This document shows positions 9,932-19,651 of a stretch of DNA of 19,651 nucleotides, piece after piece (the stretch's first letter is position 1; every line of letters begins with the position of its first letter). The stretch comes from a virus. Lineage: Duplodnaviria > Heunggongvirae > Uroviricota > Caudoviricetes. The stretch lies in the IMG/VR virus record IMGVR_UViG_2563366883_000015; one strand, 5' to 3'. The notes under the pieces were generated by a model that did no database searches, had not been told where the DNA came from, and was given only the letters and a program-made list of their open reading frames with translations. Both the position numbers and the translations under genes were made by a program.

Positions 9932-10873
9932 TCACCCCCTGAATCCTGCCGGGATCTGGCTGTAGTCCACGTTGTCGTAACTGGCTTTGAAGTACGGGTC
10001 TTCGCGTTTTTCGGTGTACGTGCTGACGGACGGCGATAAGCGCAGGGAAAGCTCATCCCATTTTTCCCGCAGCTTCGACGGGCTGAGCACGTTACGGCAC
10101 CAGAACGGATCGCGACTGACGCGGCTGTACATCTCGCAGATTTGTTTATGAGTACGACCATCCTGCACACACATCAGGCGAATTTCGTTTGCCCAGGCTG
10201 TCCAGTTCGGTTCTTTGGGACGAACCACCTCGCCGTCACATTCGGCGGCATGCTCGTACAGGGCGATGATTTTTTTCCAGAGCCACTGTGCGCAGGTCAA
10301 ATCATCCTGCGTCCCCCACTGGCGCTTTTTAGGGCTGAATACAACCGCATCAGGATGGCGAGTTAAAAAATCCTGTTCAGCCGTCTGCGTGTCCGGTTGC
10401 GAAGCGTCCGGACGAGAAGTTTTTTTATCTGACGGATCATGTTTTGATTTTACTGACGGATCCCCACCAGATTCTGACGGGTGAAAACCCGCTTTTTTGC
10501 CAGATTTCGACGCATCAAATTTTGACGGGTCAGATTTTGATGCGTCAGATTTTGACGGGTCAGAATCTGACAGTTGAGAAAATGCCGCTGCCTGAAGCTT
10601 CGCAACGTTAAGCTGATAAACATTCGACGCATTGCGGTTACCCTGGCGACGCGCCCTACGCGTTAACCAGCCTTCTGCTTCCAGCCGTGCGATAGCCGTT
10701 CTGACGGTACTCATCCCCGCGCCAATCTGGCGGGCAATGGTTTCAATTGATGGCCAGCACACACCTTCGTCATTACTGAAATCAGCCAGGCGGGCCATAA
10801 TTGCCACGCTGGATAATTTCATGCCTGATGCAGCGCAACCATCCCATACATAGCCGGTTAATTTAGTGCTCAT
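9932..10873 (-). CDS. Phage replication initiator (N-terminal HTH domain, low-complexity linker, conserved phage replication C-terminus)
   Basis: 313 aa. N-terminal winged-HTH-like region ...SIETIARQIGAGMSTVRTAIARLEAEGWL, linker SDSDPSKSDASKSDPSKFDASKS encoded by DNA repeats, Trp/Cys-rich C-terminus. GAGG RBS. Confidence 0.8.
   Translation of the reverse strand: MSTKLTGYVWDGCAASGMKLSSVAIMARLADFSNDEGVCWPSIETIARQIGAGMSTVRTAIARLEAEGWLTRRARRQGNRNASNVYQLNVAKLQAAAFSQLSDSDPSKSDASKSDPSKFDASKSGKKAGFHPSESGGDPSVKSKHDPSDKKTSRPDASQPDTQTAEQDFLTRHPDAVVFSPKKRQWGTQDDLTCAQWLWKKIIALYEHAAECDGEVVRPKEPNWTAWANEIRLMCVQDGRTHKQICEMYSRVSRDPFWCRNVLSPSKLREKWDELSLRLSPSVSTYTEKREDPYFKASYDNVDYSQIPAGFRG
10445..10576. repeat. 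Iteron-like array of ~7 imperfect 15-16-bp direct repeats (consensus approx. CAGATTTTGACGGGT) inside the replication initiator gene; candidate ori
   Basis: Copies at approx. 10445, 10468, 10501, 10517, 10532, 10547 and 10562; the last four are contiguous. Same layout as lambda ori iterons within gene O. Confidence 0.5.
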
Positions 10874-17335: not shown

Positions 17336-17698
17336 TTAATGACCTGCTGCGCGGAGTTTTCCGTCAGGTTCACCGGCAAGAGTCAGTAATTGTCCCTGGT
17401 CTTCCTGCAGAATAGTCAGGCGACCACCGCGATTGACATACATCGGCGTTTCGGTGGTGTCTTCTTCGGAAATTTTCCCGCGGTTAGTTGGGCGAACATA
17501 TGAGAGTTTGTGTTTGATTTTCACACGGTTCTCATCAAACGGTTCGATTTCCAGATTGAGTGAGACCTTCCCTTTGGTTTTCGTGTTCATCACACCGGAA
17601 GCGACCTCACTGAGAACTGCGCCGATTTTGGTTTCAAATACGCCGCCGTCCAGCTCCCCGATAAATGCCTGCACATCAGTACTGCGTTCGCTAGCCAT
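17336..17698 (-). CDS. yfdP: YfdP-like prophage protein
   Basis: 120 aa from ATG 17698 (MASERSTDVQAFIGELDGGVFETKIG...) with GAGGAG 7 nt upstream. The ORF track extends upstream to 17863 into GC-rich non-coding sequence. Confidence 0.6.
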   Translation of the reverse strand: MASERSTDVQAFIGELDGGVFETKIGAVLSEVASGVMNTKTKGKVSLNLEIEPFDENRVKIKHKLSYVRPTNRGKISEEDTTETPMYVNRGGRLTILQEDQGQLLTLAGEPDGKLRAAGH

Positions 17699-17739
17699 TT
17701 TGCTGCTCCTCATCATATCGACCCTGCAAGGTCGGTTGG

Positions 17740-18100
17740 TTTCTCCACAAAACAGAGAAGAACACCTGCGGTGGCAGCCGCCCGGATGGATTGGGTTATG
17801 AGCCCGTCGTCCGGTGATGCTCTTCTCTGTTTTGCAAAAAAGGACGGTACCAGCCGGAAGCAAGGGTACAAACTGGTACCGCCAGGACTACACACAGCAT
17901 AAAGTTGTGGTGCCGGGTGCCTCCCGGTGCCTGGCGAAGGTTGCACACCAGGCGGGTGGGTATCCACAGAAGGTCGACTGTCAGCCTCAACCTTAACCCG
18001 CGTGCGCTGAGCCGCATTCACCACAACGCTAAGGATTCTCTCTGGTTGAAAATACTTAGCTGTTATGTGCCTGCTTTTAGCCACATCAGGCGAGGTGGAC
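17740..18100. other. GC-rich, hairpin-dense non-coding block (candidate structured RNA or regulatory leader)
   Basis: No ORF with an RBS or sensible composition. 14-bp perfect stem CAAAACAGAGAAGA (17748-17761) / TCTTCTCTGTTTTG (17821-17834); 9-bp stem CGGTACCAG (17845-17853) / CTGGTACCG (17873-17881); further short stems. Confidence 0.35.
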
Positions 18101-18168
18101 CTGGTTATTCCCCAACAACAAGGATTCGGTTAATCTGGATATCCCCAACAACAATAAGAGTATTCAAT
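18101..18168 (+). repeat. Two tandem 34-bp imperfect direct repeats (core CTGGWTAT(T)CCCCAACAACAA) ending at the start of the downstream ORF
   Basis: R1 18101-18134 CTGGTTATTCCCCAACAACAAGGATTCGGTTAAT; R2 18135-18168 CTGGATATCCCCAACAACAATAAGAGTATTCAAT. An AGGATTC...CTGG motif also occurs at 18032-18047. Confidence 0.6.
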
Positions 18169-18684
18169 GTGATCGCTGAATTAACGGCAGCAATGACGGC
18201 TATTCGTGAAACAGCCCAGATTGCAAAACTAATGAACGAGGCAAAAACTCAAGCTGAAGTAAATGCGGCTATTGGTGAGCTGAACTCAAAGCTTGCGTCT
18301 ATTCAGCGCGAATGCGTGTCTCTCGTTGAACTGGTGGGCTCTTATCAAGAAATAAATGCTTCTCTCAAAGCTAAAATTGCAGAATTCGAAAACTTTGAGG
18401 CTCAGACGGAAGGCTATATCCTTAACCAACTTGAGTCGGGTACTTTTGTATACTCGAAGGAGGTAATCGTGAACGGTGGCAGCATAACCATGCATCTTTG
18501 CCCAAAATGTTTTGGACAAAAGATAGTATCGATACTTCAACCATTCCCGGTTAGCGAAGATGAGCTTTTTCATAAAAGCAGGTGCCTCCACTGTGAAAAT
18601 AAGTTTCTGATGAATAAAAATCCGGATTACGTATCGCCTCCATCCATTGAGGAGTTGTCCAGAAAACTTAACGGCAATCTGTAG
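18169..18684 (+). CDS. Hypothetical protein with N-terminal coiled-coil-like region and C-terminal CxxC...CxHC zinc-ribbon-like motif
   Basis: Frame open from GTG 18169 (AAGAG upstream) or ATG 18193 (MTAIRETAQIAKLMNEAKTQAEV...); stop TAG 18682-18684. Motif HLCPKCFGQK...(21 aa)...CLHCENKF. Convergent with cI. No family recognised. Confidence 0.5.
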   Translation: MIAELTAAMTAIRETAQIAKLMNEAKTQAEVNAAIGELNSKLASIQRECVSLVELVGSYQEINASLKAKIAEFENFEAQTEGYILNQLESGTFVYSKEVIVNGGSITMHLCPKCFGQKIVSILQPFPVSEDELFHKSRCLHCENKFLMNKNPDYVSPPSIEELSRKLNGNL

Positions 18685-18698
18685 ATTACTACTGTTGT

Positions 18699-18711
18699 GG
18701 ATATCCAGATT
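18699..18711. repeat. Right-hand inverted copy (GGATATCCAGATT) of a 13-nt sequence found in repeat R2 (AATCTGGATATCC, 18132-18144)
   Basis: Perfect 13/13 reverse-complement match, with similar ACAACA flank. The two sites bracket the ORF from ~25 nt before its start to 15 nt after its stop. Confidence 0.6.
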
Positions 18712-18722
18712 GCTAAAGAGCT

Positions 18723-18748
18723 AAGCGTCCTGTAGGGCGCTTTTTTGT
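18723..18748 (+). terminator. Rho-independent terminator for the zinc-ribbon ORF
   Basis: AAGCGTCC-TGTA-GGGCGCTT stem (one G-U pair) followed by TTTTTTG on the plus strand. Confidence 0.55.
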
Positions 18749-18912
18749 TGCTAACGAATCATCCTGGACTTCATATGCCCCAGGCGGCTACTTCGTGGGC
18801 GTCCTGCCTGTTCGTTTTTGACATTTACTGACTGCTTACGACACATGCACCGTGTTGCAACCAGATTTTGTTGTAATCCTGTAGTTGGTCTGGAACAAAA
18901 GATAAAATTAAA

Positions 18913-18949
18913 TTGCGAGATATGCAAGTGATATTTGCGAGGTATGCAA
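18913..18949. promoter_or_regulatory. Pair of 15-bp direct repeats TTGCGAGATATGCAA / TTGCGAGGTATGCAA, 22-bp period (operator-like)
   Basis: 14/15 identical copies at 18913-18927 and 18935-18949, each with inverted TTGC/GCAA ends, in the gap between the two convergent terminators downstream of cI. Confidence 0.35.
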
Positions 18950-18960
18950 ATTTATAGGTA

Positions 18961-18983
18961 GTAAAAAGCCACCTTTCGGTGGC
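18961..18983 (-). terminator. Rho-independent terminator downstream of the cI-type repressor gene
   Basis: GCCACC-TTTC-GGTGGC hairpin (18968-18983), followed on the minus strand by a T-tract (plus-strand AAAAA 18963-18967), 20 nt after the repressor stop. Confidence 0.5.
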
Positions 18984-19003
18984 CGATGGATGGGATATTG
19001 AGG

Positions 19004-19651
19004 TTAATTATGTCTCTTAAGGGTTTGCGACTGACTGATTAAGACCTTTCCAAAGACCATGAATCGGTGTTCGTTTTCGCTAGTAATTCCCCATTCACGG
19101 TAAATCTGGTTATCAGAAATCACCAGCAGTTTGTCAGGAATCATTTGAAGTCTTTTAACGTATATTTTGTCATCAAAACCAAAGACATATATACCATCAC
19201 CATCAAACTGATTGATGCTGACATCAACGAAGATGAGATCTCCTGGCTCAATGGTTGGACACATACTGTCCCCACGAACGTTGATAACTTTGATGTGATT
19301 GGCTGGTCGTCCGCCGAACATTGATACAGCATTATCAGTTCTGTATTCGATGGCATGAATCACATCAATGACATCACCGCCCTGGATAAGGCCATTTCCC
19401 GCACTGGCACTGATATCCAGCATTTCAATACGGAACACATCCTTCACCTGCGCAACATCCTCATTATTACTGTTTTTATATACAGTATTACTTTTGTGGG
19501 CAGAGGTAAAGAGATCAGCAATATCAACACCTAAGCTCTTGGCAATATTACTCAGTGTTTGTTCGGTAAATTGTTTTTGCTTACCCGTTTCTAAGCGCGA
19601 GATGTTCGCCGCATCTACTCCTATTGCTTCAGCGAGATCGGCGATTTTCAT
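19004..19651 (-). CDS. CI-type prophage repressor (HTH plus LexA-like S24 autopeptidase domain); N-terminus probably beyond the window edge
   Basis: HTH segment IADLAEAIGVDAANISRLETGK; Ala-Gly cleavage site in SASAGNG; S24 motifs VRGDSMCPTIEPGDLIFVD and YVKRL. The frame reaches the window end, and the HTH appears to lack its first helix. Confidence 0.85.
   Translation of the reverse strand: MKIADLAEAIGVDAANISRLETGKQKQFTEQTLSNIAKSLGVDIADLFTSAHKSNTVYKNSNNEDVAQVKDVFRIEMLDISASAGNGLIQGGDVIDVIHAIEYRTDNAVSMFGGRPANHIKVINVRGDSMCPTIEPGDLIFVDVSINQFDGDGIYVFGFDDKIYVKRLQMIPDKLLVISDNQIYREWGITSENEHRFMVFGKVLISQSQTLKRHN

Follow-up and report, generated by a model that had tools for sequence, protein, structure and literature searches.

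Adjacent 15-bp repeats downstream of cI in an argU-integrated lambdoid prophage: probable left operators of the CI-type repressor overlapping a predicted leftward promoter

Introduction

Two nearly identical 15-bp repeats stand side by side just downstream of the repressor gene of an Escherichia coli prophage. Which protein would bind them, and do they belong to a promoter? The sequence is IMG/VR record IMGVR_UViG_2563366883_000015, and the window means here the whole stretch of DNA that was analysed, 19,651 nt in length. It is a lambdoid prophage integrated at the argU tRNA, with identical copies in many complete genomes; positions in one annotated identical copy, L001, are converted to window coordinates by adding 9299. 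A first-pass annotation had proposed that the repeats resemble adjacent operators for a dimeric regulator, of the left-operator (OL) kind, or else an orphan promoter.

Phages with this immunity type include the serotype-converting Shigella phage SfII, Stx2-converting phages and ST64B of Salmonella Typhimurium. Among 5426 complete E. coli genomes, 2281 have matches to parts of 18300-19651. Knowledge of the operators and left promoter of this type would give a concrete map of how induction, and with it the release of toxins or effectors, is controlled.

Results

Two dyad-symmetric repeats lie between convergent terminators

The left repeat, TTGCGAGATATGCAA, occupies 18913-18927 and the right repeat, TTGCGAGGTATGCAA, occupies 18935-18949. 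The copies differ by one mismatch. Their spacing is 22 bp from start to start, as the first-pass annotation had reported, or about two helical turns. Its description of the surroundings was also borne out: the pair lies between two convergent terminators, at 18723-18742 (plus strand) and at 18984-18967 (minus strand), in a gap that holds no credible open reading frame, and a TTGACA hexamer is present at 18818-18823. The minus-strand terminator is the intrinsic terminator of the repressor gene (18967-18984), directly upstream of the right repeat in the direction of transcription, and the same terminator is annotated in phage SfII. Both repeats are dyad-symmetric, each an imperfect palindrome of the form TTGC-N7-GCAA.

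We searched the whole window for near-tandem pairs, defined as a 15-mer recurring with at most one mismatch at an offset of 15-30 bp. Only two were found, namely this pair and an unrelated 30-bp repeat at 10515, while none of 60 windows simulated with a first-order Markov model contained one. With up to three mismatches allowed, the motif occurs twice anywhere in the window against 1.3 expected, which alone is not significant. The non-randomness of the pair lies in the copies being adjacent and nearly identical, and not in the motif count. As a separate observation, the second near-tandem repeat (10515-10566, period 30 bp, TCAAATTTTGACGGGTCAGA...) falls in the host fimbrial usher (sfmD) region and is unrelated to the prophage.

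The same motif recurs between cI and the cro-like gene

The gene next to the repeats (19004-19651, minus strand) encodes a CI-type repressor with helix-turn-helix (HTH) and peptidase S24 domains (Peptidase_S24, 6e-19; HTH_3, 1e-11; HTH_26). By these domain matches it is an HTH repressor whose C-terminal part is of the self-cleaving, LexA-like type; in addition, its sequence shows an Ala-Gly site, a GDSM serine and a VKR lysine. In L001 the gene is 693 bp long; the window thus stops 45 nt before its start, and the methionine codon at 19649-19651 is an internal one (Met16).

A cro-like gene diverges from cI across a 97-bp gap in L001. The first-pass annotation had suggested looking for the same 15-mer in this intergenic region, and the motif is indeed there, where about 0.03 TTGC-N7-GCAA sites would be expected. 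Site 1 (TTGCGTGATAAGCAA, L001 10418-10432) has none of the eight fixed positions mismatched and covers the predicted pRM -35. Site 3 (ATGCATAACGCGCAA, or TTGCGCGTTATGCAT on the other strand; L001 10466-10480) has one mismatch and covers the predicted pR -10/+1, and between the two a weaker middle site, beginning TTGCGCAA, supplies the predicted pR -35. Identified by eye, pRM (L001 10398-10432) would consist of TTGCTT, a 17-bp spacer and TGTAAT 6 nt before the cI ATG, and pR of TTGCGC, 17 bp and TAACAT. Sites placed over these predicted promoters are the layout of a CI/Cro switch. In the 19-kb locus as a whole, perfect TTGC-N7-GCAA occurs three times, always at OL or at the right operator region (OR), against about 0.3 expected.

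Two further features of this region were noted. The short distance from the pRM -10 to the cI ATG suggests that the cI mRNA is leaderless or nearly leaderless, as in lambda. A fourth operator-like site, GTGCGTAAGGCGCAT (L001 10517-10531), lies about 23 nt inside the cro-like gene and is perfect, TTGCGAAAATCGCAA, in phages phiNP and Flotzy (L005 and L006, 3496-3510); it may be a genuine operator downstream or just a consequence of what the gene encodes.

The repeats follow the repressor across immunity types

Compared with the window, the cI region is 99.4% identical in DNA sequence in SfII, 89% in mEp460 and several Stx2 phages, and 77% in Salmonella phage ST64B. We assembled a group of eight phages (the window, SfII, mEp460, ST64B, phiNP, Flotzy, Klebsiella P7641 and Klebsiella phage 1 LV-2017) with hosts in Escherichia, Shigella, Salmonella, Citrobacter and Klebsiella and with cI DNA identity down to about 69%. 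All eight carry two TTGC-N7-GCAA sites, 22-24 bp apart, directly past the cI terminator, and all eight have the same set of sites at OR, the half-sites being kept while the centres differ. The recognition helix D(A/G)AN(I/V)SR(L/V)ETGKQ is conserved in all repressors of this TTGC type. The view that the repeats are adjacent, OL-like operators for a dimeric regulator is supported by this recurrence at OR and by an arrangement kept in eight phages with the same recognition helix.

We also looked at relatives of other immunity. ZF40 and AH07 have a recognition helix of their own, common to the two phages, and likewise their own common GGTAAC..GGTAC repeats, which indicates that the repeats in the OL slot follow the repressor.

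A leftward promoter is predicted over the left repeat

Read on the minus strand, the left repeat is TTGCATATCTCGCAA, and its first six bases, TTGCAT (18922-18927), form a predicted -35 hexamer. After a 17-bp spacer follows a predicted -10, TATCTT (18899-18904), which would place the start of this putative promoter, pL, at about 18890-18892. The first-pass annotation had found no convincing -10 element; that holds for the plus strand, but not for the minus strand with its conserved TTGCAT, 17 bp and TATCTT. TTGCNN stands 17 bp from the -10 in all eight phages of the TTGC group, and the -10 is TATCTT, at exactly this distance, in seven (the window, SfII, mEp460, phiNP, Flotzy, P7641 and Klebsiella phage 1 LV-2017), ST64B having TAATTT instead. 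The repeats thus overlap sigma-70-type hexamers directed away from cI, the left repeat being the promoter-proximal, OL1-like site and the right repeat the distal, OL2-like one. A consensus promoter scan of 17600-19651 reported no promoter; it missed pL because only 7 of the 12 consensus positions match.

The heteroimmune relatives provide the strongest argument for pL. Between the repressor terminator and a leader element, each has a near-consensus leftward promoter with its own repeat pair: TTGACA-17-TACATT in ZF40 and AH07, TTGACA-18-TACATT in YeP1, TTGACA-16-CATAAT in SfV, TTGACA-17-TAATAC in SPN3UB and TTGACT-17-TTTACT in mEp237. Their -10 sits 5-6 nt before a common leader sequence, CATCAACAGCGAACAGG, which is the position of TATCTT in phiNP and Flotzy.

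Expression data for ST64B in S. Typhimurium D23580 fit a leftward promoter under repressor control. The non-coding RNA STnc1310 and the homologues of yfdP and yfdQ, which lie downstream of cI on its strand, are expressed most highly in peroxide and nitric-oxide shock, the only conditions with expression of ST64B lytic genes (PMC7067206). Part of this rise could be read-through from cI.

An alternative in which no transcript starts here is that CI binds these sites only to loop with OR, about 0.8 kb away, as auxiliary operators that would sharpen pR repression and pRM autoregulation. Flanking sites play such a part in certain other temperate phages. In favour of this view, OR has the motif too, the neighbouring gene is convergent, and the hexamers are the weak ones that the consensus scan passed over. 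We nevertheless regard it as unlikely. It would leave unexplained a TATCTT held exactly 17 bp from the -35 in seven of eight phages and nearly invariant in 79 loci, the strong promoters at the homologous position in heteroimmune relatives and the induction-linked transcription downstream of cI in ST64B; moreover, the early-left (recombination and integration) genes must be transcribed from some promoter, and between cI and yfdP no other is evident. Looping between OL and OR may well occur in addition to the promoter, not instead of it.

With pL as the preferred reading, the other first-pass suggestion, an orphan promoter, loses its support, as the predicted promoter heads the early-left operon. 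The minus-strand order is cI, terminator, operator-like sites, leader, (cargo), yfdP, yfdQ, yfdR, ..., int. A point against this reading is that in the window the first downstream gene is convergent, so that about 0.5 kb would be transcribed in antisense before the sense genes are reached.

Probable operators and predicted promoter are inherited with cI as one module

We took the best 80 matches, viral contigs (L011-L090) whose repressor is identical to that of the window. Homology to the window ends variously at about 18852, 18763 and 18709 in these 80 loci. Every one of these end points falls left of both the -10 and the repeats, from which it follows that OL/pL is inherited with cI as one module. 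Half-sites, -35, spacer and -10 are nearly invariant among the loci with identical cI, and the -10 shows a single variant among 55 unique rows.

The slot beyond OL/pL is filled, among loci with the same cI, by one of at least three alternative cargos. In the window it holds only a convergent gene of 171 amino acids (18169-18684, plus strand) with no Pfam family above cut-off, followed by the terminator at 18723-18742; the other two cargos include a sense-strand open reading frame right after the leader. Read on the minus strand the cargo terminator should be poor, because its G-U pairs become C-A and no U-run follows.

The 171-aa gene is exactly bracketed by 26-nt inverted repeats (18132-18157 and 18686-18711, 85% complementary), whose arms are also present in one other cargo of the slot. 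We considered an invertible cassette and rejected it, the segment being inverted in none of the 80 loci. Farther along the minus strand, 17834-18057 gives a sub-threshold match to the STnc100 sRNA (40.3 bits against a gathering threshold of 47; E 6e-7). This stretch, which is also conserved in ST64B, carries a RefSeq annotation as a frameshifted hypothetical CDS and may be a non-coding part of the early-left transcript.

The mosaic junctions also bear on which protein uses the sites. A regulator other than CI, whether the Cro-type protein alone, a YmfL/cII-like protein or a host factor, seems to us improbable, even though the Cro-type recognition helix is similar to that of CI (PATLSRIER and AANISRLET). 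From one immunity type to another the motif changes together with the recognition helix of cI, it moves with cI through several independent mosaic junctions, and at OR it lies over both of the predicted divergent promoters, as is characteristic of CI/Cro operators. Cro in lambdoid phages normally shares operators with CI. We expect the Cro-type protein, probably also a user of the predicted OL1 and OL2, to bind besides CI and not in its place.

A structured leader follows the predicted promoter

Just past pL, at 18753-18816 on the minus strand, lies a leader element with an invariant 22-nt core, GGCAGGACGCCCACGAAGUAGC, at 18787-18808. Further copies were located at L004 2995-3060 and in L091-L100 around position 1200-1580, and altogether 51 phage records contain the element. 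Many of these are heteroimmune temperate phages, and a T5-like Providencia phage and an Aeromonas phage are among them. Each phage has a single copy, which lies on the strand of the repressor gene, downstream of it and just past an early promoter in every case. The element is confined to the left side; in L001, no copy of the core was found in the 9 kb to the right of cI.

The outer stem occurs in four sequence versions, with 6/6 pairs formed in 11 of 14 sequences, and the inner 5-bp hairpin shows double compensatory changes at every pair. The structure is supported by this covariation and not by fold stability, the single-sequence fold being not unusually stable (z = 0.18). Rfam gave no match in 18700-19000 at gathering or E-value thresholds (E up to 5), and a literature search did not find the core sequence.

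We rejected three identities for the element. A nut/put-type antitermination site does not suit a single left copy, as against one per early operon, and there is no similarity to the HK022 pL-nun region. A small arginine-rich minus-strand ORF (31 aa, from 18859) is contradicted by stem-preserving double substitutions and the absence of a conserved reading frame. A hammerhead-like fold was suggested by GAUGA and CGAA motifs, but their order and the core bases misfit, and Rfam found no ribozyme. The element is common to many phages without a recognisable N protein. Our guess is that it acts in cis on read-through, processing or stability of the early-left transcript; it could, for instance, be a protein-independent antiterminator or a stabiliser of early-left transcripts.

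The leader also bears on the perfect TTGACA at 18818-18823, which the first-pass annotation had mentioned along with the repeats. It lies within a leader insert of about 85 nt and is absent from ST64B, phiNP and Flotzy, which lack that insert; it therefore falls outside the module. A plus-strand or orphan promoter using this hexamer, or the -35-like TTGCGA contained in each repeat, would yield a transcript complementary to the repressor mRNA at its 3' end. We consider such a promoter very improbable: neither the scan nor inspection found an acceptable -10 16-18 bp past TTGACA or TTGCGA, and the transcript would at once run into the cI terminator hairpin.

A hypervariable patch covers the probable distal operator

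We computed nucleotide diversity (pi) over 79 loci with identical repressor. It was 0.0045 at cI third codon positions and 0.006-0.009 across the -10 and leader, and rose to 0.033 in OL1, which is nearly invariant and varies only in its centre. Much higher values were obtained in the gap before OL2 (0.075), in OL2 (0.108), where the central 3-5 bases are hypervariable and the half-sites conserved, and in the 7-bp spacer between the operators (0.160). The hypervariable patch thus spans about 35 bp (18928-18966), comprising the OL2 centre, the 7-bp spacer and about 15 bp before it, with pi of 0.08-0.16. Among 32 loci with identical flanks of 345 nt and 150 nt, we counted 21 haplotypes of the roughly 60 nt that these flanks enclose.

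We cannot account for this 20- to 35-fold excess over synonymous diversity by relaxed constraint alone; choosing the best 80 matches lowers cI diversity somewhat, but the equally invariant non-coding leader is unaffected by that choice. If a targeted process is at work, one candidate would be a mutational hotspot in repressor-bound, untranscribed quasi-palindromic DNA, and another would be selection retuning pL repression or OL-OR looping in each host lineage. In addition, one of the 27 SfII-type loci among L011-L090 has a clean 22-bp deletion that leaves a single fused operator, which shows that the two repeats do undergo recombination or slippage in natural populations.

That polymorphism, the loss of one repeat and the pseudogenes in the L001 prophage might suggest a chance or decaying, functionless duplication in a defective prophage, but this is hardly credible given the 0 of 60 simulations, the half-sites conserved across eight phages and 79 loci, and the 99.4% identity of the region to the sequenced Shigella phage SfII.

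Discussion

We conclude that the two repeats are most likely OL1 and OL2 of the prophage's CI-type repressor, overlapping a predicted leftward promoter, pL, on the minus strand. Directly visible in the sequences compared are the motif itself, which recurs at OR, is conserved and changes together with the repressor, and the promoter hexamers, which are conserved as well. The whole is most likely a standard part of a lambda-like genetic switch, with the architecture expected of one.

What we infer beyond this is that the repressor binds, perhaps cooperatively and with looping between OL and OR over about 0.8 kb, that pL is active, and how far its transcript extends. Each 15-bp TTGC-N7-GCAA site would take one repressor dimer through its two outer half-sites, and the 22-bp spacing would put two dimers on the same face of the helix and so allow cooperative binding. 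In the lysogen, bound repressor would shut pL; upon RecA-stimulated self-cleavage of the repressor, pL would fire. The transcript would then comprise the structured leader RNA, run antisense across the convergent cargo gene and continue into the early-left genes yfdP-yfdQ-yfdR...xis-int. The searchable literature yielded no description or printed sequence of these TTGC-N7-GCAA operators, and our literature search found no binding, footprint, start-site or reporter data for this immunity type.

Two features deserve a specialist's look, the hypervariable patch over the auxiliary operator and the conserved leader RNA without a described family. We put forward tentatively, as a possibility we would not favour, that 18928-18966 is a genuine hypervariable spot, which if targeted would amount to a previously undescribed diversification of the switch, and, separately, that the leader RNA is a new cis-acting element. 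If the patch is targeted, prophage switches would diversify without any change of repressor.

Among known systems, the closest in plan is lambda OL/pL. As there, the sites lie downstream of cI and ahead of the early-left operon, OL and OR both contain dyad-symmetric sites, neighbouring sites are about two helical turns from each other, the -35 is overlapped by an operator, and the repressor is a LexA-like HTH-S24 protein; the general lambda scheme is summarised in PMC3317979 and PMC10448788. The mEp460 mentioned in the latter is a different, DicA-type phage. Unlike lambda, the present locus has 15-bp TTGC-N7-GCAA sites instead of 17-bp operators, no rexAB between cI and OL but a terminator directly before OL2, a different structured leader at the place of nutL and a weak match to the promoter consensus.

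It also has only two sites, in all eight phages, where lambda, P22 and 434 have three. Three sites are the paradigm set by those phages, a typical but not an essential feature. A precedent for a two-site OL is Stx phage 933W (PMC5977221), whose operator sequence and repressor are unrelated to those here and whose repressor is reported not to bind adjacent sites cooperatively.

The operators of phage 434 are 14 bp long, with short conserved outer half-sites, ACAA..TTGT, around a variable centre. The sites described here resemble them in having conserved outer half-sites (TTGC..GCAA) and a variable, presumably non-contacted centre that could tune affinity, and differ from them in length, 15 bp, and in the half-site itself.

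The nearest classical relative of the repressor is HK022 CI (42% identity over residues 19-228). HK022 does not serve as a model: it has no perfect TTGC-N7-GCAA, no pair with one mismatch in operator arrangement and no similarity to the leader. HK022 also lacks N, but has a putL/putR pair, as against the single leader element per phage seen here. No N gene was reported for SfII, SfV and SfIV, which are related phages (PMC3851460). Set in an experimentally unstudied immunity type, this locus is most likely a lambdoid OL/pL, a known kind of system and not a new kind.
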